A DNA stretch of 64,000 nt from a virus, in the IMG/VR virus record IMGVR_UViG_3300049830_000285, positions 113,709-177,708 of that record, one strand, 5' to 3'. The number at the start of each line of letters is the position of its first letter. The stretch's first letter is position 1. Made by a program: the position numbers and the translations under genes. The notes beneath the pieces were generated by a model, which was not told the DNA's origin, did no database searches, and saw nothing but the letters and a program-made list of their open reading frames with translations. This document shows positions 24,697 to 47,148 of the stretch, one piece after another.

Positions 24697-25014
24697 TTAT
24701 CGCGATTTAAAATATTTGTTTTGCGGCATATACCAGAAATCTGGACTGTTAAATTCTTCGTAATATGCCCACACTTCGCCCATAAAGATATCAGTAATAC
24801 CTTGGTCAATACATTCTTTCATAGAGTGTACGCTTAAAACATTTGATATTCTGCCTTGTGAATCAACTCCGAATGCTATCCATCGTGCTTCATCTGACGA
24901 CCTAAAGTTGTATGTCTTAATGACATCGGCTTCAAAGCCTTTTTCTTTTAGTAAAGCTGCTAATCGTGCAGTAAGTGTGTTCGGCTTTACATTCGCCACA
25001 ATCATTTTAGCCAT
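24697..25014 (-). CDS. Hypothetical protein
   Basis: 105-aa ORF. Confidence 0.5.
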   Translation of the reverse strand: MAKMIVANVKPNTLTARLAALLKEKGFEADVIKTYNFRSSDEARWIAFGVDSQGRISNVLSVHSMKECIDQGITDIFMGEVWAYYEEFNSPDFWYMPQNKYFKSR

Positions 25015-25036
25015 TGGTTGCTACTCACTCTTGATG

Positions 25037-25546
25037 TTAATATGATGATTTTAGTTCCACAACTAAATGAGGGTAAAGAATGGCGAGCGAAACGTTGTCC
25101 TCTCCATCGTGATTTCTCACTCCCAAAAACTGTGCTTGTGGCAATATAAATTGTGAATTTTCCGGGCATTCATCTGAAGTTAGAACTTCCATTCCAAGAC
25201 GATGAGCTTTGCGCTCCGACGATGGATGACTTATTAAGTATACGCAATCCATATAATTTTCTAATATACACATTGCGCGATTAATCTCAGAACTCACATT
25301 CGAAGGATTGATTTCAATAGCCTTTTGCAACATTTTAATTAAGGCAGCATCTTCATTTTCAATCTCGTCTTGCCATGTTATAAATTCCTCAGCATGTATA
25401 ACCTTCGCCTCTCCATCGCGCCAAATAACGGCACATTGTTGCTCAACACCCTCTGGTGGTTCAATACTATATCTCGTGTTACAATACAGGTCATCAAACA
25501 AAACTTTTTTGGTTAATTCATTCATGCCTTTATTATACACAATCAC
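25037..25546 (-). CDS. Capsid-like paralog fragment (C-terminal half-like)
   Basis: YLISHPS..EVLTSDECPENSQFILPQAQFLGV parallels 54754-55986. Confidence 0.4.
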   Translation of the reverse strand: MIVYNKGMNELTKKVLFDDLYCNTRYSIEPPEGVEQQCAVIWRDGEAKVIHAEEFITWQDEIENEDAALIKMLQKAIEINPSNVSSEINRAMCILENYMDCVYLISHPSSERKAHRLGMEVLTSDECPENSQFILPQAQFLGVRNHDGEDNVSLAILYPHLVVELKSSY

Positions 25547-25555
25547 TGATTATAA

Positions 25556-25631
25556 TGGTACTCAGAACAGGAGTCGAACCTGCATAAAACTCCTTGTAAC
25601 GAAGCTGTTACTGCCTTTGCACTATCTGAGC
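25556..25631 (-). tRNA. tRNA-Val(TAC)
   Basis: Cloverleaf, loop GU-UAC-AA (unusual G32), CCA. Confidence 0.75.
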
Positions 25632-25632
25632 A

Positions 25633-25953
25633 TTAATTGAAGGCTAAATCGCTGAGTATCTTGTCGTAGATACCACCCATTCCTTCTTCCTGTTGCTGAA
25701 CAAGTTTGACAATATCTCGAATAACTTCTGAAGTGTTGGAGTTGATGTCAATATGTATTCTGTTTTTTTCATTGCTTAATTCCAAAAAATAACAACCCTC
25801 GTTGCCAACTACTACCTTCCATTCTCCAACAAATGTTTGCCATCTGTCGTATCCTCGGTTAATCCGAGTCCATTTGAGTTTATTGTCACAAGTTTTCTTT
25901 TCGATTTCTTCGGCAATTTTCATTTGCTTATGGCTGTATTCTGTCATAAGCAT
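25633..25953 (-). CDS. Hypothetical protein
   Basis: ORF between tRNAs. Confidence 0.5.
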   Translation of the reverse strand: MLMTEYSHKQMKIAEEIEKKTCDNKLKWTRINRGYDRWQTFVGEWKVVVGNEGCYFLELSNEKNRIHIDINSNTSEVIRDIVKLVQQQEEGMGGIYDKILSDLAFN

Positions 25954-25969
25954 CAGTTTACCATAAAAA

Positions 25970-26055
25970 TGGTCGGCATGGCAGGACTCGAACCTACGTG
26001 AACTTTCGCTTCCATCTTATCAGGATGGCACTCTACCAATCTGAGTTACACGCCG
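25970..26055 (-). tRNA. tRNA-Ile(GAT) with long variable arm
   Basis: CCAUC-CUGAUAA-GAUGG anticodon arm; 14-nt variable region AAGCGAAAGUUCAC; CCA. Confidence 0.85.
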
Positions 26056-26058
26056 AAA

Positions 26059-26544
26059 TTATTCTGTTTTCAAGCATTGAGCTATTTGCTTGATTAAGGT
26101 GTCAGAAGTGACATAGGAGGCTAAACTGCAATAAAGAGAAGAAGACTGAAGTTCAGCAATGTAAGAATTAACCTTGGCAACAAGTTCTTCAATGGCTTTC
26201 TTCTCAGTGCTATTTTTGTATTTGTAAGCCTTAATGATATCTAGTTTTTGTGTGAAAAATTCTATGTCAAACGTAGCATCTACATTACCAATGTCAATAA
26301 GCTTTACTCCCTCAAATTGCTGGATGATATTTCGCTCATCTGGAGTCGTTGAACAAGTTACCATTGGGCCTTCAATAAAAACGTGCATGCCCATATAATC
26401 ATAAATTTGCACTTGATGCAATCGCGCAAACATGAGCGACATGTAGTCTTCATCTTCCAAAAAGATTTTGGTGTATTGGACTTCAGTTTTCTCTTCACCT
26501 AAGGTTCGAAAAGAACGACATGTGCTATGGCTAATCATAGTCAC
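26059..26544 (-). CDS. Hypothetical protein
   Basis: 161-aa ORF. Confidence 0.5.
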   Translation of the reverse strand: MTMISHSTCRSFRTLGEEKTEVQYTKIFLEDEDYMSLMFARLHQVQIYDYMGMHVFIEGPMVTCSTTPDERNIIQQFEGVKLIDIGNVDATFDIEFFTQKLDIIKAYKYKNSTEKKAIEELVAKVNSYIAELQSSSLYCSLASYVTSDTLIKQIAQCLKTE

Positions 26545-26586
26545 AGCATACCTGAAAGTTGTTGCCGTTTTTAGGCGGCAACAATC

Positions 26587-26982
26587 TCATTTTCGTCGCT
26601 CGAAGCTCACCTCAACAGAATAGTATGTATCCAGATTAGCGCACCAACGAATCACGAGTGACCCCTTGAATGTACCAATACGGTAAAACGTCCACAGCAA
26701 ATCTGAATCGTCTTCCGAAGAAGATTCATCAGCATATGCGACTGGGGCTCCGACGAGACTTTGTGGGTCTCCGCAGATATCCTCAATGTAAACGAGTTCA
26801 CAGCAATCCTGCCCGTGATACATGATGTAAGACTCCGTTTCGTCTACAGTAAACACGATTTCGTCGCGATTTACCTTGACATCACTTAATATCTTTCCAA
26901 CAAGGTCACTGAACTTTGGCGATGGTTGTCTAGTTGTTTGTATGTTTGTCATATCAATGTCGCGCAACAAACTATAGAACAA
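26587..26982 (-). CDS. Conserved phage hypothetical protein
   Basis: YHGQDCCELVYIEDICGD motif. Confidence 0.65.
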   Translation of the reverse strand: MFYSLLRDIDMTNIQTTRQPSPKFSDLVGKILSDVKVNRDEIVFTVDETESYIMYHGQDCCELVYIEDICGDPQSLVGAPVAYADESSSEDDSDLLWTFYRIGTFKGSLVIRWCANLDTYYSVEVSFERRK

Positions 26983-27080
26983 TTCTAATATACTTCAAAA
27001 ACCACCACTTATAAGCTTTTTTTGATTATTTTTTAAAAAGGCCTGAATTTCCGTGTCTCCATTGTCGTTTTATATATGTA

Positions 27081-27338
27081 ATGAAAAACTTACGTAACAT
27101 TAACCTCTCGCCAAAAACACAATCCGAAGTCTACGCTTGGATGACTTGCGCAATTCTCGCGCACACTCGAATGGGCGTTAGTTTTACTCCCAAGGGAGCG
27201 AAACTCGCAAAGGAGATTAAAATGGCTCCTGAAGCATTTTTAAAGGTAGTGGATGAGCTACAGAAAGAGAATGCGTTCGGCTTCACTGAGTTAACAAGCG
27301 AAGAAGCGGAAGAGCTTAAACGTTGGGTGAAAGAATAA
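27081..27338 (+). CDS. Hypothetical protein
   Basis: 85-aa ORF. Confidence 0.5.
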   Translation: MKNLRNINLSPKTQSEVYAWMTCAILAHTRMGVSFTPKGAKLAKEIKMAPEAFLKVVDELQKENAFGFTELTSEEAEELKRWVKE

Positions 27339-27356
27339 CATCATGTTGAAAAAATT

Positions 27357-27435
27357 TGGTGGAGGATACGGGATTCCAACCCGTCTGTTTTCTTCCTTGC
27401 AAAAGAAGCGACCACCGCCAGTAGTCCTATCCCCC
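27357..27435 (-). tRNA. tRNA-Ala(TGC)
   Basis: G3.U70 pair, loop UU-UGC-AA, T-loop UUGGAAU, CCA. Confidence 0.8.
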
Positions 27436-27792
27436 ATATTGTGACGTTGTTTCGTATGAATCATCAACGTCAAGTTTGTCATCCACTTTTGTGGATTTGT
27501 GAATGTCTCGCCACCCATAAGCGCGTGTCCTGGGATTGCACAATCCGCAATCCCAGGAACATCCAACAAATTTCTTTTTGCCCTCGTGTCTCCACTTGCC
27601 TTCGTTTCTGTAAAGGCGACGAAAGCATTTGGTGACAAATTCGTGGTTAGTTGGAACCAAGATGTAGCCTCTCTCTGGATGGCGAACATACATCTCAGTT
27701 TCCTGAGATTCTTCTGCCCACCAACTACGATTCCAAATACGTCGTTTAATTAACGCAGTTTTTGCTCTGCGTTCAGCTCTTGTGTGTTTCAT
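27427..27792 (-). CDS. Hypothetical basic protein
   Basis: 121-aa ORF with CSWDCGLC; overlaps the tRNA 5' end. Confidence 0.5.
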   Translation of the reverse strand: MKHTRAERRAKTALIKRRIWNRSWWAEESQETEMYVRHPERGYILVPTNHEFVTKCFRRLYRNEGKWRHEGKKKFVGCSWDCGLCNPRTRAYGWRDIHKSTKVDDKLDVDDSYETTSQYGG

Positions 27793-27902
27793 TATCCTGT
27801 CTTAGATGGCTATGCCGTCTAATACACAGAATGTTTTCCAAAGTATTTCATGAGTTCATTATACTACGAAATACTCACGTTGAGGAAATTTGGTGGAGGA
27901 GG

Positions 27903-28619
27903 TTATCTTAATCTCGATTTTCGACCATTGCCTTTATTTAAAATACCGTATGTTGGAGTTAACGCATGACAATTTGGGCAAATCAATTCTAGGTTTATTT
28001 CTTTAGAATCTGTTGAATCGCCGTTAATATGATTTACTTGTAACGGAATCTTTTTAGTAATAGGATGCTTTTTTGACCATCCACATTGTGAACATTGCGC
28101 TCGATATTTTTCATGTAAAAACCTTCTAATATGATTGCTTATTCCCCCGCTTTTAGTGTTTCCAGAAATTTCACCTTGCTGCCATTTCGCAATGTAATTT
28201 TCATATTGTAAATTTTTTCGATGAATAGTACAATATTTTGAACCTGTAGTTTTAACATTGCAAATACAACAATGATATGTTCGCTTAATAGCTTGTCCGT
28301 AGAAAGATGGTTTAATGTTTGGCAGCCCATCAATAGATTGCGCCTTGTCTTTACATATTCTAGAACAAAAGTGAAGTCCTGATTTGCTTCTTGAAAATTT
28401 GCTTTTTGACCGCGTTATTGTTTGATTACACCAAGCACAAAATTTTTCAATATTAGTGATTAAATTGACATGCTTTTGTCGGCACTCACGAGAGCAAAAA
28501 TGAGATGGATGTTTGTTAATCTCTTTGTTTAATTTAAGAAAAGTTTTTTCACAACCAGTACATGTGACTTCTGAAGCTGAGCGATTTTTACCGTAACTAT
28601 CTTTGATATATAGGTTCAT
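27903..28619 (-). CDS. HNH homing endonuclease with N-terminal Cys/Zn repeats
   Basis: CxxC and HFCSRxC repeats; LQVNHING..NLELICPNCH. Confidence 0.88.
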   Translation of the reverse strand: MNLYIKDSYGKNRSASEVTCTGCEKTFLKLNKEINKHPSHFCSRECRQKHVNLITNIEKFCAWCNQTITRSKSKFSRSKSGLHFCSRICKDKAQSIDGLPNIKPSFYGQAIKRTYHCCICNVKTTGSKYCTIHRKNLQYENYIAKWQQGEISGNTKSGGISNHIRRFLHEKYRAQCSQCGWSKKHPITKKIPLQVNHINGDSTDSKEINLELICPNCHALTPTYGILNKGNGRKSRLR

Positions 28620-28672
28620 AATATAGCATTTAATCCGTTGGTGGAGTATACCTTCTTTGCGCTGTGTAAAAA

Positions 28673-28748
28673 TGGTGGAGATAGCGAGATTTGAACTCGC
28701 AACCTATTCAATGCCATTGAATTGCTCTCCCAATTGAGCTATATCCCC
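28673..28748 (-). tRNA. tRNA-Ala(GGC)
   Basis: Cloverleaf, G3.U70, loop AU-GGC-AU, CCA. Confidence 0.92.
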
Positions 28749-28759
28749 AGTTGATATCT

Positions 28760-28833
28760 TGGTCGGCATACTAAGAATCGAACTTAGATAAATCGGTTAT
28801 CAGCCGAACCCTCTACCATTGAGGTATATGCCG
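28760..28833 (-). tRNA. tRNA-Ile(GAT)
   Basis: Loop CU-GAU-AA, CCA. Confidence 0.85.
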
Positions 28834-28837
28834 AGGT

Positions 28838-28911
28838 TGGTAGGCAGTGAAGGAATCAAACCTTCACTTCTCCCTAATCAGGGGAGCAGTCTATCATTAA
28901 CTTAACCGCCC
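28838..28911 (-). tRNA. tRNA-Ile(GAT), U37 variant
   Basis: CUCCC-CUGAUUA-GGGAG, CCA. Confidence 0.8.
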
Positions 28912-28926
28912 ATGTGTGGAATAAAT

Positions 28927-29005
28927 TGGTGGAGGGCACGAGACTCGAACTCGTCTGCTGTCCATATTGCAAGTATGGCAATCACACCAGGCAATTCCGC
29001 CCCCC
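28927..29005 (-). tRNA. tRNA-Ala(TGC)
   Basis: G3.U70, CCAUA-CUUGCAA-UAUGG, CCA. Confidence 0.85.
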
Positions 29006-29022
29006 ATGTGTGATTAAAATTG

Positions 29023-29097
29023 TGGTGGGCGATGAGGGATTCGAACCCCCGACCAATAGAATGTAAATCTACTGCGCTTCCGCTGCGCCAATCGCCC
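29023..29097 (-). tRNA. tRNA-Val(TAC)
   Basis: Cloverleaf, loop UU-UAC-AU, CCA; 5' end overlaps the HNH C-terminus. Confidence 0.88.
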
Positions 29098-29437
29098 TTG
29101 GTATTTCACACAATCCAGCGTGAATTTTAGCATGACAGTTTCTACATACCAAAACGCATTTATCCATTTCAGCTTGTAGTCTTTTCAGTGAAACCATCTT
29201 TCTGACCAATGTTGCTACACAATCATCTTTGTCTTTAAGATGGTGAAAATCTAAACATACGATTTCTGATTCTCCACAACAAACACAAGGATTTTTTTGC
29301 TTCCATGCGTCTACATGGGCTTTATTTCTTTCTCGCTTACCCTGTCTATGGAATTTAGCATTTTCTTTTTTTCGTGCAGCATTTACTGGATTAGCATACC
29401 AATTTTGGTGATAGATTTTTCTTTCTTCGGCGTTCAT
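29069..29437 (-). CDS. HNH endonuclease (tRNA-associated)
   Basis: CVCCG..CLDFHH..EMDKCVLVCRNCHAKIH. Confidence 0.85.
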   Translation of the reverse strand: MNAEERKIYHQNWYANPVNAARKKENAKFHRQGKRERNKAHVDAWKQKNPCVCCGESEIVCLDFHHLKDKDDCVATLVRKMVSLKRLQAEMDKCVLVCRNCHAKIHAGLCEIPRAIGAAEAQ

Positions 29438-29475
29438 AGGTGTTTATTCTTATACATATGTTTACACACCTCTTT

Positions 29476-29517
29476 TCTCCGTGTAAAAGAGTAACTCTAC
29501 CGCTGAGTTAATCGCCC
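29476..29517 (-). pseudogene. Orphan 5' fragment of a tRNA-Val(TAC)
   Basis: GGGCGAUU acceptor strand, D arm ACUC/GAGU, anticodon loop UU-UAC-AC; no T arm follows. Confidence 0.75.
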
Positions 29518-29604
29518 GTAAAAGACGGAAAGCGAAAACCATATTGCCTATCGAACCCAACTTAATGGGATTAGAAGTAATGACTTTCATAGCCGCCTAA
29601 ATCT

Positions 29605-29679
29605 TGGTATCCGCACTGAGACTTGAACTCAGAACCTTTCGCTAATCAGGCAAACGCGCTACCATTGCGCCATACGGAT
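29605..29679 (-). tRNA. tRNA-Ile(GAT), U37 variant
   Basis: UUUGC-CUGAUUA-GCGAA, CCA. Confidence 0.85.
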
Positions 29680-29697
29680 ATATCGGTGGATTAAAAT

Positions 29698-29772
29698 TGG
29701 TGGGCAGTGTGAGAATCGAACTCACTTCGTTTCCGTGTAAGAGAAACTCTATTACCAAATTGATAACCGCCC
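29698..29772 (-). tRNA. tRNA-Val(TAC)
   Basis: UUUCU-CUUACAC-GGAAA, CCA. Confidence 0.82.
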
Positions 29773-29924
29773 AGATTGACTAGTCGCCCGAGAAAGATTA
29801 AAATATATACGATTGTTCTGTCACGCAGTATTTTTGCATATATTTTAATCAAAATGCCAGATTAGAAAGTATGGTGTTTTACCCTTTTCTTGGGAAATAT
29901 GCCATGTTTTTTAATCTGAGAAAA

Positions 29925-29999
29925 TGGTACCAACGGGGGGAATCGAACCCCGCCCCCGAGAAGGTATGAACTTCTGGCCCTTTGCCCAAGGTCGTTGGC
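29925..29999 (-). tRNA. tRNA-CAT (Met or Ile2), atypical D arm
   Basis: AGAAG-UUCAUAC-CUUCU, normal T arm, CCA. Confidence 0.7.
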
Positions 30000-30057
30000 A
30001 TGTATTGATTTATCATGGGATGGAAGTTTGGGTACTTCCATCCCTCGCAATCAGCTC

Positions 30058-30077
30058 TATTCGGTTTTCAAAGTGCA
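30058..30077 (-). promoter_or_regulatory. boxA-like antitermination element
   Basis: UGCACUUUGAAAACCGAAUA between the attenuator and the first tRNA. Confidence 0.6.
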
Positions 30078-30106
30078 TTGTGAACTTTCGTTCGGTGTAT
30101 AAATCT

Positions 30107-30148
30107 AAAAAAAAAGAAGGATTCGGTCTTTCTGACCGAATCCTTCTT
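30107..30148 (-). terminator. Attenuator terminator of the Met/Val/Ile/Ala tRNA operon
   Basis: 15-bp stem AAGAAGGAUUCGGUC/GACCGAAUCCUUCUU followed by a U tract. Confidence 0.9.
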
Positions 30149-30171
30149 GCATTTCTCTTTGCTTGTGGAAC

Positions 30172-30249
30172 TTAGGTCAGAACGTCCTCTGCGATAATCG
30201 CAGCGGCTACAACAATTGCCATGACCATAATGTTTCTGTTGTATCTCAT
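30172..30249 (-). CDS. Attenuator leader peptide MRYNRNIMVMAIVVAAAIIAEDVLT (not in the ORF track)
   Basis: 14 consecutive Ile/Met/Val/Ala codons; AAGGA upstream; the stop region pairs with the terminator 5' arm. Confidence 0.85.
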   Translation of the reverse strand: MRYNRNIMVMAIVVAAAIIAEDVLT

Positions 30250-30276
30250 TTTCGTTCTTTGTTCCTTTTTAAAATC

Positions 30277-30353
30277 TGGGTGCGAGCTGCTGGAATCTAA
30301 CCAACCTACCGGGGTTTATGAGACCTCGCTCGTCAACAGTAGAGTAAGCCGCA
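30277..30353 (-). tRNA. tRNA-Met(CAT)-like, atypical
   Basis: GAGGU-CUCAUAA-ACCCC, bulged acceptor stem, T-loop UUAGAUU, CCA. Confidence 0.6.
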
Positions 30354-30358
30354 TATTC

Positions 30359-30400
30359 ATTATGCACTGTCAATATGCATTTGTCAACAACATTTGAGGA
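30359..30400 (-). promoter_or_regulatory. Sigma70-like promoter with upstream TCCTCA
   Basis: TCCTCA-7-TTGACA-17-CATAAT. Confidence 0.8.
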
Positions 30401-30421
30401 TTTTTTCAAATCTTTTTGTTT

Positions 30422-30700
30422 TTAGCCTAAAACTGGAATGTCTTCAGCTTCATAACGTGTTGTACTTGACCATCCTTCTGGCGACTGCTCTTTGCACTCA
30501 AAGGCAACACATCTGTTTCGACCAGACTGAGCAGTTTGCTGATATGGGCGATTTTTACCATTACCAGTTGTCATCATCGGCTGAAATTCCCCCAATGACT
30601 TGACATTCTCTATGCCATATTTTTCTTCAAGATAATGTCTGACTTTATATTCAGTTGTAAAATTGCCGATTCTTTGGCTTGCAAAAGTGAGTAACCACAT
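30422..30700 (-). CDS. Hypothetical protein
   Basis: 92-aa ORF. Confidence 0.5.
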   Translation of the reverse strand: MWLLTFASQRIGNFTTEYKVRHYLEEKYGIENVKSLGEFQPMMTTGNGKNRPYQQTAQSGRNRCVAFECKEQSPEGWSSTTRYEAEDIPVLG

Positions 30701-30905
30701 AACTGAATTATAGCATAGATTCAGTTAGGCGTCTTCCAATCATCATTTGAATCATTATAAGGAGACTTGCGTGGCAGATATCCAAGTGCTATTTCTGCCT
30801 GTCTCAAAGTATTCTGTCCGCGTTTCCATCCTCGAAAAGAGTCATCCTCTTCAACAGCTTCGTACAAATTCTTAAGCGCTCGTCTTAATGTATCTTCAGT
30901 TTCGT

Positions 30906-31166
30906 TCATGGCTGATTTCTATTGTACAGAGTTACTTCTTTATCGCAACCACTACAGAAATATTTCTTTTCAAAGAGTGATTTGGAAAGGATGGTGGTGA
31001 TATCGTATCCCTCTCCATTTCGCAGCACGACACAATCTATCAGCACATTGTGGATTTTACCGTCAGCATCGACCTCTTCATGCATAAACTGTGCGTCATC
31101 GCAAATTAGCATATAGGGATAGTCAGTGTGGTCGGTAACAAGTTCAGGATTTTCTGTATTGAACAT
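30906..31166 (-). CDS. Hypothetical protein
   Basis: 86-aa ORF. Confidence 0.5.
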   Translation of the reverse strand: MFNTENPELVTDHTDYPYMLICDDAQFMHEEVDADGKIHNVLIDCVVLRNGEGYDITTILSKSLFEKKYFCSGCDKEVTLYNRNQP

Positions 31167-31178
31167 GTTCTTAGTATA

Positions 31179-31541
31179 TCACAATTCATCATCTTTCATC
31201 TTAGCGTGAAGTTTAGCGTGACAATTGCGACAAATCACAATGCATTTATCCATTTCCGCCTGTAGTACGGCAATGGATACTGGTCTTTTTGCCATATCGG
31301 ATATATTGCCAGATTTGTTTCCAATATGATGAAAGTCTAAACAAACAATATCAGATTCCCCGCAAGCGCACGGATTTACCATTCTGTATTCATCTATATA
31401 CTGTTTGTTTCGGTTGCGATGAAGTTCTTTGTGAATTTTTGCAGTAGCTTTTTGCTTAGCCTGATATTCTGGCTCTGCATAGCGTTTTTTGTGATACGAG
31501 GCTTGATATGCTTTTTTATCTTCCGTTGATTTGGGTGGCAT
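31179..31541 (-). CDS. HNH endonuclease (tRNA-associated), paralog of 29069-29437
   Basis: CACG..CLDFHH..EMDKCIVICRNCHAKLH. Confidence 0.85.
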   Translation of the reverse strand: MPPKSTEDKKAYQASYHKKRYAEPEYQAKQKATAKIHKELHRNRNKQYIDEYRMVNPCACGESDIVCLDFHHIGNKSGNISDMAKRPVSIAVLQAEMDKCIVICRNCHAKLHAKMKDDEL

Positions 31542-31594
31542 ACCATATCATACCATGTATAACAAAGCCCATCCTTTAGATGGGCTTATAAAAA

Positions 31595-31670
31595 TGGTGC
31601 GGAGGCAAGATTCGAACTTGCGACCTTTGAGGTATGAACCCAACAAGCTACCAGACTGCTCTACTCCGCA
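31595..31670 (-). tRNA. tRNA-Met(CAT), initiator-like
   Basis: GAGCAGUCUGGUAGCU D arm, GGG in the anticodon stem, CAU; own TTGATA-17-TATAAT promoter. Confidence 0.85.
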
Positions 31671-31719
31671 ATATCATTATACCAACATAATCACCACTTA
31701 TCAACTATTTTGAGAAAAA

Positions 31720-32586
31720 ATGTATAAAGCTATTGAATTCGTTGATGAAACGAGTCAAAAATTGCCAAGTGATGAGCTTGGCGGAGACATTACGATGAGT
31801 AATACAAATAATTCAGCCATAGATGCTATCTATGAAGGAATGGTGGAATCCATTCACGGAATCGACATTACTACTGTTTACAGAGAAGAGCAAAAAGATT
31901 CTCTCTGGCATAGGATATGTGACTTCAAAACATATCCATTTACAGAATACTTTATGTTAGAGGGAAATACTGGCCCTATTTTCATAAGAGTTTCAGATAA
32001 ATTAATGACGGCTGGCGGATTAGCAGCAACTTACATTCCAAAAATAACTATTGCCACAAATCCAACAATCAGGTTAGAAGAACTGCGCAAAATGCATGAT
32101 TTTGAAAATCTAATACGTTTTGCCTGTCATCGTCTACATACTCAAATTGATATGGAGTTGATTAAGATTCTTCTTGAGACACACAAAGATAGTCACGAAC
32201 TTGAAGAATATACGACCATGATAATGAGCGCGGAAACATGTGAGCAGTTGATTGGTGAGCCTATTGATTGCTCGTTTCATACTCACAAAGGTTATTCATA
32301 TAAAATTCCATTAAGAGGAATGGTGCCGACATGGGTGGTGGAAGACACTGAATTCACCAAACTAAGTCTTGACAAATCTGTGGTTATAGACTTTCAACAT
32401 GATGGGAAGAAAATAATCATCAGCAATGAAATGCCACCAGACACTATCATTAAGTTAAATGACAATCCAGTTGGTATTGTTTGTTCCCGCGAGATTGTCT
32501 ATGCCATGCCCTGTCCTGAGCCAAAAAGATTAAGACTTGGAGCAGTGATTTCTGATGAAATAGGAGTAGGCGTTTACGGCTCTTGA
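31720..32586 (+). CDS. Divergent capsid-like paralog
   Basis: PTIRLEELRK and PEPKRLRLGAVISDEIGVGV match the other capsid-like ORFs in this window. Confidence 0.5.
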   Translation: MYKAIEFVDETSQKLPSDELGGDITMSNTNNSAIDAIYEGMVESIHGIDITTVYREEQKDSLWHRICDFKTYPFTEYFMLEGNTGPIFIRVSDKLMTAGGLAATYIPKITIATNPTIRLEELRKMHDFENLIRFACHRLHTQIDMELIKILLETHKDSHELEEYTTMIMSAETCEQLIGEPIDCSFHTHKGYSYKIPLRGMVPTWVVEDTEFTKLSLDKSVVIDFQHDGKKIIISNEMPPDTIIKLNDNPVGIVCSREIVYAMPCPEPKRLRLGAVISDEIGVGVYGS

Positions 32587-46503: not shown

Positions 46504-46579
46504 TGGTGCCCCAGGCGAGACTCGAACTCGCGGCTTTCACGTTCGAAGCGTGAATCTCTATCCACTGAGTTACCGGGGC
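46504..46579 (-). tRNA. tRNA-Arg(TCG)
   Basis: Canonical cloverleaf UCACG-CUUCGAA-CGUGA, CCA. Confidence 0.92.
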
Positions 46580-46594
46580 ATGGTTGATTAAAAT

Positions 46595-46683
46595 TGGAGC
46601 GCACGACAGGATTCGAACCTGCATTTGAGATTATCTCACTCCTTTAACTAATATAGTTTCGAAGACTACTGGTGTACGTGCGC
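46595..46683 (-). tRNA. Atypical D-armless tRNA-Arg(TCG)-like RNA
   Basis: Acceptor GCGCACG/CGUGCGC-U-CCA; GUAGU-CUUCGAA-ACUAU only 7 nt after the acceptor strand; ~30-nt variable region; normal T arm. Confidence 0.55.
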
Positions 46684-46697
46684 GTTTTTAAGAAAGT

Positions 46698-46772
46698 TGG
46701 AGCATGAGCAGAGAATCGAACTCTGTCCCCTGATTTTGCAGACCAGTACCTAAACCATTTGGCTTCTCATGC
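46698..46772 (-). tRNA. tRNA-Cys(GCA)
   Basis: CUGGU-CUGCAAA-AUCAG, U73, CCA. Confidence 0.88.
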
Positions 46773-46788
46773 ATTTGTTGATTAAATT

Positions 46789-46864
46789 TGGTCTCCTTGA
46801 CTGGACTCGAACCAGCGGTCTCAGCCTTCGCAGGGCTGTGTTTTATCCTCTAAACTACAAGGAG
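46789..46864 (-). tRNA. tRNA-Arg(GCG)
   Basis: CAGCC-CUGCGAA-GGCUG, CCA. Confidence 0.9.
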
Positions 46865-46867
46865 ATA

Positions 46868-46942
46868 TGGCTGAAGAGACTAGATTCGAACTAGTATCCA
46901 AATTGTTCAAAGCAATTTATCCTACCTTTAGACGACTCTTCA
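46868..46942 (-). tRNA. tRNA-Gln(TTG)
   Basis: U1-A72, G73, AAUUG-CUUUGAA-CAAUU. Confidence 0.88.
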
Positions 46943-46951
46943 ATATTTTTT

Positions 46952-47025
46952 TGGCTGAGGAAGCTAGATTCGAACTAACATTTTTCGGGTCAGAGCCGAT
47001 TTTCCTACCTTTAGAAGATTCCTCA
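46952..47025 (-). tRNA. tRNA-Gln(CTG)
   Basis: U1-A72, G73, loop CU-CUG-AC. Confidence 0.88.
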
Positions 47026-47040
47026 GTATTTCTTTCACAC

Positions 47041-47059
47041 TATTCAATTTTCAATGTAC
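47041..47059 (-). promoter_or_regulatory. boxA-like antitermination element
   Basis: GUACAUUGAAAAUUGAAUA in the spacer after the first tRNA. Confidence 0.55.
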
Positions 47060-47072
47060 GTTTTTAAAGTTT

Positions 47073-47148
47073 TGGCTGAAGAGGTTAGACTCGAACTAAC
47101 ATTTCACAAATTCAAAGTTTGGGTTCCTACCAATTAGAAGACTCTTCA
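47073..47148 (-). tRNA. tRNA-Gln(TTG)
   Basis: U1-A72, G73, loop CU-UUG-AA. Confidence 0.82.

Follow-up and report, generated by a model that had tools for sequence, protein, structure and literature searches.

A free-standing HNH endonuclease gene probably lodged in a former tRNA-Val(UAC) gene of a viral tRNA array

Free-standing endonuclease ORFs of fungal mitochondria insert into genes and bring a duplicated, diverged gene end with them. The host gene stays whole by way of the replacement end, and the old end persists as a pseudo-fragment. The hosts are protein-coding genes, the enzymes usually belong to the LAGLIDADG or GIY-YIG families, and it is normally the 3' end that is duplicated. 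In phages, free-standing homing endonucleases are established inhabitants of tRNA clusters, as the SegB and T5 enzymes exemplify. SegB of T4 homes in a tRNA cluster, recognises a motif in the tRNA T arm, cuts within the tRNA genes of phages lacking SegB and is inherited with flanking tRNA genes (PMC2330249). The segB ORF adjoins tRNA-Arg, and maturation of the tRNA was proposed to cut the mRNA beside the stop codon (PMC2330249). SegB homologues are associated with tRNAs across many phages (PMC13096335). In T5, endonuclease ORFs lie within the tRNA cluster, and a lowering of expression through processing of the primary transcript has been proposed (work cited in PMC2330249).

Control of such genes was described, in PMC2988022, for I-TevI and segB and for mobE of Aeromonas phage Aeh1, where a hairpin that hides the ribosome site is combined with a late promoter; the I-TevI operator resembles the homing site of the enzyme. 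A full-text search of incomplete coverage returned no published account of phages in which an HNH gene interrupts a resident tRNA gene, or lies next to a fragmentary one, and delivers a substitute tRNA.

The DNA analysed here (the window) comes from an uncultured freshwater phage and makes up the final 64 kb of its IMG/VR virus record, which is 177.7 kb long and has a CheckV completeness of 47%. The sequencing runs that contain its sequence are freshwater and freshwater-sediment metagenomes. The features of the locus are as follows:

29679-29605, minus strand: tRNA-Ile just upstream of the HNH locus
29517-29476, minus strand: orphan 5' part of a 'type A' tRNA-Val(UAC), 42 nt (reverse-complement read)
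29475-29438, minus strand: spacer, the left end of the cassette, 38 nt (sequence read)
29457-29434, minus strand: upstream ORF of 8 codons (7 residues and stop), its stop overlapping the HNH start as ATGA
29437-29069, minus strand: HNH (His-Me finger) endonuclease ORF, 122 aa, apparently intact (ORF and PHROG)
29097-29023, minus strand: complete tRNA-Val(UAC), 'type B2' allele, CCA encoded (ARAGORN tRNA-Val(tac), Rfam)
29055-29023, minus strand: variable loop, T arm, acceptor 3' strand and CCA of the complete tRNA (tRNA-Val alignment)

The orphan consists of the acceptor 5' strand, the D arm and the whole anticodon arm; its tRNA-like sequence stops once the anticodon stem is complete, at the point at which a variable loop would be expected to start. 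The complete tRNA-Val has a cloverleaf and a defined anticodon and scores 67.9 bits against Rfam RF00005 (threshold 29). The last 29 nt of the HNH ORF are the first 29 nt of this tRNA (29069-29097). A sequence-only reading had described the orphan, the HNH gene, the complete tRNA and the overlap, and its coordinates, all of them minus-strand, proved exact at single-base level. Its further observation that the two tRNAs share their start and diverge in the D and anticodon arms was borne out: the first 8 nt are identical, the D stem and anticodon stem differ, and the anticodon loops, UUUACAC in the orphan and UUUACAU in the complete tRNA, differ in their last base.

A Logan contig of run X1, possibly the source sample, spans positions 29025-29900 with zero differences. 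Runs X2 and X4, which belong to other studies, contain parts of the HNH gene and of the upstream spacer/orphan junction in identical form; this independent support covers the gene and that junction, the orphan-to-HNH junction lying outside it. Logan contigs break across a 30-nt T-arm repeat (29025-29054) because other genomes in the sample share the repeat. The IMG/VR contig spans it, and depth on either side is similar (96.7 and 108.8). As far as the data reach, an assembly artefact is unlikely for the HNH/orphan locus.

The 122-aa protein matches PHROG 2255 and 3106, both 'HNH endonuclease', with E-values of 6e-19 and 9e-17. In an alignment with six homologues (seven sequences) the residues C51/C54, H65, H66 (DFHH), C98, N100, C101, H102 and H106 are invariant, a set which comprises both Cys pairs, the DFHH motif, the Asn of CRNCH and the last His, as is characteristic of HNH/His-Me finger enzymes, whose beta-beta-alpha metal motif has a catalytic His, a conserved Asn and a second His and is often flanked by two zinc-binding Cys pairs. 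The protein thus looks like an intact and active HNH endonuclease. Pfam HNH (PF01844) gave no match to it at E-values up to 0.1, and a profile of the protein's own family matched no PDB chain at E-values up to 0.01; judged by these comparisons, it is a member of a divergent HNH subfamily. It matches HNH families only and has no recognisable GIY-YIG catalytic domain, and its gene lies inside neither a self-splicing intron nor an intein.

The orphan is the 5' part of a common tRNA allele. In a BLAST search of 2.3 Gb it matched cyanophage tRNA-Val genes at up to 90.7% identity over 43 nt (E 2e-7), and 39 of its 42 nt are identical to the type A allele. Among at least 119 matching IMG/VR contigs, type A is intact in all 119 that were readable and broken in none; two end at the contig edge. 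Many of these genes, those of S-RIM8 and S-RIM50 included, match the window's complete tRNA exactly in the T arm and acceptor strand. The last 31 nt of that tRNA are a type A 3' half, and the stretch between 29053 and the discriminator base (29026) is identical at every position to type A alleles in an alignment of S-RIM8, S-RIM50 and S-RSM4. When the orphan is joined in silico to 29054-29023, ARAGORN calls a tRNA-Val. In the metagenomes that contain the phage, other contigs join position 29500 to 29053/29054 through 26-28 nt of differing anticodon arms. They carry intact tRNA-Val genes, which were assigned to other genomes because their flanks differ. An intact allele combining the orphan's 5' half with the window's T arm, as had been predicted from the sequence, is therefore widespread in IMG/VR contigs and occurs in the same metagenomes. 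Region 29055-29023 may have served as the right-hand homology arm or as the zone of crossover.

The complete tRNA represents a second naturally occurring allele. It is identical at 72 of 73 positions to the tRNA-Val of three IMG/VR loci (L135, L165 and L175), a single D-loop base differing. Ten IMG/VR contigs share the B2 anticodon arm with the UUUACAU loop, none with an HNH gene directly upstream, and fifty more carry the sister allele of S-RSM4. Elsewhere, B2-type genes sit in ordinary cyanomyovirus-type tRNA arrays and are without CCA, whereas the window's copy encodes it. The proposal that the cassette supplies a 5' half recoded for supposed resistance to cleavage is supported only in part. 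The new tRNA does have a different 5' half, but since 72/73-identical B2 genes stand elsewhere with no adjacent HNH gene, the features taken for recoding are those of a pre-existing allele. The cassettes of the nearest relatives contain whole tRNAs. Delivery of a 5' half only is possible at the window locus, where the CCA and an array-typical downstream spacer would agree with a 3' end that is native; half-tRNA replacement and whole-tRNA replacement with merged 3' ends look the same in the sequence of this locus and are indistinguishable there.

A search of 5.8 billion proteins gave homologues of the HNH protein with a best identity of 50%. The two nearest (50% and 45%) both adjoin tRNA-Val, one with anticodon UAC and the other with GAC. 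In the nearest (L195/L197), the stop codon is formed by nt 8-10 of a tRNA-Val(UAC), and upstream L197 keeps only the piece of a tRNA that bears the anticodon loop. The second (L198, positions 1381-1923) comes after a tRNA-Ile, like the window's locus, and contains a split tRNA-Val(GAC) of which both halves are kept. The order is the first 43 nt of the tRNA-Val(GAC), a spacer, the HNH gene, a complete and different tRNA-Val(GAC), and a 3' orphan of about 30 nt with the variable loop, T arm and acceptor strand that match the 5' fragment. Joined in silico, the orphan halves are called as tRNA-Val(GAC) by ARAGORN. The break falls after the anticodon stem, at the same tRNA position as in the window, and the two 3' halves of L198 differ at many positions. 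On this arrangement, the L198 cassette is plainly the HNH gene together with a whole tRNA; it is the clearest example among the loci compared.

A pair of cyanophages provides a further comparison. S-RIM50 (L003) has an HNH gene with 35% identity in its product between cpeT and tRNA-Gly, and S-RIM8 (L002) has no HNH gene at that place. The first 12 nt of tRNA-Gly are duplicated in S-RIM50, before and after the HNH gene, and the tRNA-Gly that follows the HNH gene diverges from its S-RIM8 counterpart from end to end. The cpeT stop codon of S-RIM50 falls within the retained 12 nt. The split gene of L198, the tRNA-Val-adjoining homologues and the S-RIM50/S-RIM8 pair support the original proposal that a homing-type HNH gene entered a tRNA-Val gene.

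At least 445 HNH homologues were confirmed. Of the 80 best metagenome homologues, 39 have a tRNA on the same strand that starts between -143 and +180 nt from the stop codon. The ORF overlaps the tRNA in 25 of the 80, and 11 of the 39 have an overlap of precisely 10 nt. Of the junctions listed as distinct, 11, that of S-RIM50 among them, end in a stop at tRNA nt 8-10, either TAG or TAA. The tRNA-associated homologues cover 23 different anticodons. By this company, the window's HNH gene is of a lineage that lives in phage tRNA gene arrays. An upstream stub and a downstream tRNA sharing 8 nt or more (prefix match) were seen in only 3 of 41 HNH-tRNA loci. A screen in which stubs were rejoined in silico and submitted to tRNA calling recovered the window, L198 and L255. 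A further hit of the screen (L005) was a false positive, its 'stub' being a whole tRNA with a UCA anticodon that ARAGORN had missed; this tRNA-like gene (L005:2770-2843), which reads UGA, lies upstream of an HNH homologue on a 198-kb viral contig. Two other stubs upstream of HNH homologues are a tRNA-Trp(CCA) stub at L255:143-230 and a much-shortened tRNA-Gly(CCC) stub at L006:2840-2875 (= L230).

A near-isogenic phage that lacks the HNH gene was found neither in INPHARED nor in IMG/VR nor in the metagenome runs searched. When the surrounding 10 kb were compared by Megablast with 50,697 phage records (INPHARED), the only match was a tRNA stretch of 72 nt. In IMG/VR, a 24-nt spacer pattern gave no match and the neighbouring 288-aa protein had no confirmed relative. 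The contigs of four runs contained no joint that removes the HNH gene from the phage's own flanks, low-depth gaps in them being uninformative. We infer insertion at the window locus from relatives of 35-50% protein identity.

The tRNA genes around the locus form a minus-strand run in the order Val (29772), Ile (29679), the HNH locus, Ala (29005), Ile (28911), Ile (28833) and Ala (28748). The window contains three intact Val(UAC) genes, the other two being at 29772 and 25631, and four Ile(GAU) genes, and isoacceptors that share one anticodon have unrelated bodies. A 3' CCA is encoded by all 20 tRNA genes of the window (e.g. 28673-29772 and 46504-47148), the complete tRNA-Val included. Many of the tRNAs are separated by a similar AT-rich spacer which ends in ...ACAT or ...ATAT before nt 1; this common spacer suggests a joint processing signal or duplication of a unit. 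The spacer 3' of the complete tRNA-Val resembles those after several other window tRNAs. Rfam matches in 25000-32000 (E-values up to 1) were tRNAs, one weak tmRNA-like match and one weak match to a cis-regulatory family (Plastid-ycf2). Further HNH-type genes lie in or beside the tRNA arrays, bringing their number in the window to at least four:

31179-31541, minus strand: paralogous HNH gene after tRNA-Met and a hairpin, 50% identical to the locus HNH
27903-28619, minus strand: larger HNH gene, 238 aa, downstream of tRNA-Ala(GGC); L198 contains a relative with 52% identity
62391-63248, minus strand: HNH-like match inside an ORF, beside tRNA-Asn genes

Two stretches of the array stand out. The 87 nt between tRNA-Ile and the orphan (29518-29604, minus strand) are without the array-typical spacer motif and contain a T-loop-like stretch; identical copies occur in runs X3 and X4. 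This segment may be a decayed tRNA or an imported flank. Directly before the tRNA-Val at 29772-29698, the 17 nt at 29773-29789 (minus strand) resemble the first 18 nt of that tRNA, with about 14 matches and one gap, and may be a trace left by an earlier insert that was later lost from this second Val gene.

The arrangement is best read as a free-standing HNH homing gene lodged in a former type A tRNA-Val(UAC) gene of an Ile/Val/Ala operon by intronless homing, a reading to which we assign a probability of about 0.7. The resident type A gene is broken after nt 42, at the boundary of anticodon stem and variable loop. During a mixed infection, the enzyme would cut or nick the tRNA-Val gene of an HNH-free genome, and repair would be templated by the HNH-bearing genome, with the tRNA 5' half as left homology arm and the 3' half as right arm. 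The copied segment would comprise the HNH gene and a replacement tRNA-Val, or at least its 5' half. The replacement would keep tRNA-Val function and would no longer offer the target. Double-strand-break repair leaves the recipient's sequence unchanged as far as the break, and the segment between the homology arms comes from the donor. By this logic, the orphan would be resident, the import would consist of the HNH gene and no less than the 5' part of the new tRNA, and the 3' part could be either. The absence of a 3' orphan from the window would follow from the identical 3' halves (31 nt) of the replaced and replacing genes: the right crossover may have fallen inside the tRNA, or two direct repeats may later have collapsed. 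In L198 the 3' halves differ and both are kept, so the window-type and L198-type loci would be two states of one process. The complete tRNA may nevertheless be resident rather than imported, and the orphan itself could be an imported flank because 29518-29604 is without the array spacer motif.

Expression of the HNH gene appears to depend on the tRNA operon. The tRNA run is preceded by a promoter-like site (30387-30359) and a terminator-like hairpin (30148-30114). A promoter scan gave no strong promoter directly upstream of the HNH gene, the nearest good match being the site at 30387-30359, and the gene is presumably transcribed with the tRNA operon from about 30387. Since the tRNA contains the stop codon of the HNH ORF, processing at its 5' end would deprive the HNH mRNA of that codon.

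The anticodon loop of the orphan (29487-29481) has an exact complement 13 nt downstream (29467-29461). Five cassettes (window, L197, L198, L255 and L006/L230) have a complement of their own anticodon loop 9-13 nt downstream; they cover the four anticodons UAC, GAC, CCA and CCC, and the arms, taken from an exact inverted-repeat scan, match the loops of their own loci. S-RIM50 pairs its own 12-nt tRNA-Gly stub likewise. By a simple count, a 7-mer complement within about 20 positions is expected by chance about once per 800 loci, and the five cases are thus not attributable to chance. Perfect inverted repeats of at least 8 bp lie upstream in 18 of 72 distinct homologue loci (1.5 expected from shuffles), and a T4-type late-promoter motif in 14 of 72 (1.0 expected). 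In S-RIM50 (L003:2446-2500), the HNH gene comes after a 9-bp hairpin in which the duplicated start of tRNA-Gly forms the left arm and a T4-type late-promoter motif sits in the loop. The hairpin of the window has arms of only 7 bp with a competing 7-bp pairing, the RNA fold of 29425-29520 did not outperform shuffled sequences (z -1.33), and a consensus late-promoter motif is absent upstream of the window's HNH gene. It is possible only that a weak hairpin of orphan loop and cassette damps translation of the window's HNH. A group I intron, in which the exon end would pair with the insert, was considered for the hairpin and rejected, as no Rfam intron family matched and the 38-nt spacer and ORF are too short for a ribozyme core.

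Three other explanations of the locus were weighed. Type A and B2 may have been native tandem Val genes, the first of which lost its 3' half to a deletion or to a stray, non-targeted HNH insertion, with neither targeting nor rebuilding of tRNA-Val. The redundancy of Val(UAC) and Ile(GAU) genes in the array, the occurrence of B2 alone elsewhere and the native look of the CCA and downstream spacer of the complete gene are all in keeping with such a history, but the closest HNH relatives are likewise fused to tRNA-Val 5' ends, the break in L198 falls at the corresponding tRNA position and leaves both halves in place, and a fusion of ORF end and tRNA start that recurs in 25 of 80 homologues is not what repeated accidental deletion is expected to produce. 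We regard this course of events as quite unlikely. Still less probable, to our judgement, is that the HNH genes are domesticated in the manner of SegB of T6, amplifying and shuffling tRNAs such that varied Ile, Val and Ala tRNAs escape tRNA-cutting defences of the host, with the orphan as a by-product. The abundance of HNH-type genes at the tRNA arrays and the unrelated bodies of same-anticodon isoacceptors would suit this role, and SegB-driven tRNA amplification against the Septu defence has been published (PMC13096335). However, the window contains no direct-repeat amplification of an HNH-tRNA unit, the copies are old and divergent, the paralogous HNHs being 50% identical, and nothing ties the host to a tRNA-cutting defence. 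Domestication would in any case be compatible with a selfish origin and not opposed to it.

The orphan may, finally, be a part of the cassette kept for its function and not debris, its anticodon loop serving as the arm of a regulatory hairpin or as an I-TevI-like operator which limits read-through expression of the HNH gene. Control of this kind has been published (PMC2988022). The five cassettes with complements of their own loops, the S-RIM50 stub pairing, the excess of inverted repeats upstream of homologues and the retention in L197 of only the loop-bearing piece all point in this direction. The short arms, rival pairing and ordinary fold energy of the window's hairpin point the other way, as does the match of the full 42 nt, far beyond a hairpin arm, to an ordinary tRNA allele; for the window's orphan, we consider such a function highly improbable.

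Homing into the type A gene as the preferred reading could be one instance of a wider rule, under which HNH-tRNA cassettes would be a general means of position-specific tRNA allele replacement. Each isoacceptor would have its own lineage with a fixed entry nucleotide, the leftover anticodon loop would become an arm of a control hairpin, a new anticodon arm would be delivered, and homing would also spread variants that escape anticodon nucleases. This generalisation is speculative and we think it unlikely to hold as a whole. More directly, the locus adds a Val-specific lineage with a common break point and an anticodon-matched hairpin arm. Testable rules follow: a break after the anticodon stem in the Val lineage, a frequent stop at tRNA nt 8-10, and a hairpin arm that tracks the anticodon of the broken gene. 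The rules give substrates for defining how HNH enzymes read tRNA genes, help in annotating tRNA fragments and "hypothetical" ORFs in phage tRNA arrays, and bear on how phages acquire several differently built tRNAs per codon.

Among described systems, the window's HNH gene most resembles segB in being a free-standing endonuclease gene within a phage tRNA array, with an ORF that adjoins a tRNA. SegB is a GIY-YIG enzyme, and the window's HNH would work like SegB without being a member of its family. SegB lies between intact tRNA genes, whereas the window has a resident tRNA gene that is interrupted and survives as a stub; neither split tRNA genes nor orphan halves are described for SegB in the accessible portions of PMC2330249 and PMC13096335. 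The T5 enzymes, as cited in PMC2330249, share with the window's HNH their placement in a tRNA cluster. Homologues in Felix O1-type and other phages were found by tblastn, and T5 was not among the matches listed. The mobE/I-TevI scheme has a parallel in many homologues of the window's HNH, which have an upstream hairpin and, in some cases, a late-promoter motif. In the window itself the hairpin is weak, and one of its arms is leftover target, the orphan anticodon loop, an arrangement not described in the available sections of PMC2988022. The free-standing ORFs of fungal mitochondria differ in the host gene, the enzyme and the duplicated part: in the window the host is a tRNA gene, the enzyme is an HNH endonuclease, and what appears to be duplicated is the 5' half or the whole of the tRNA.
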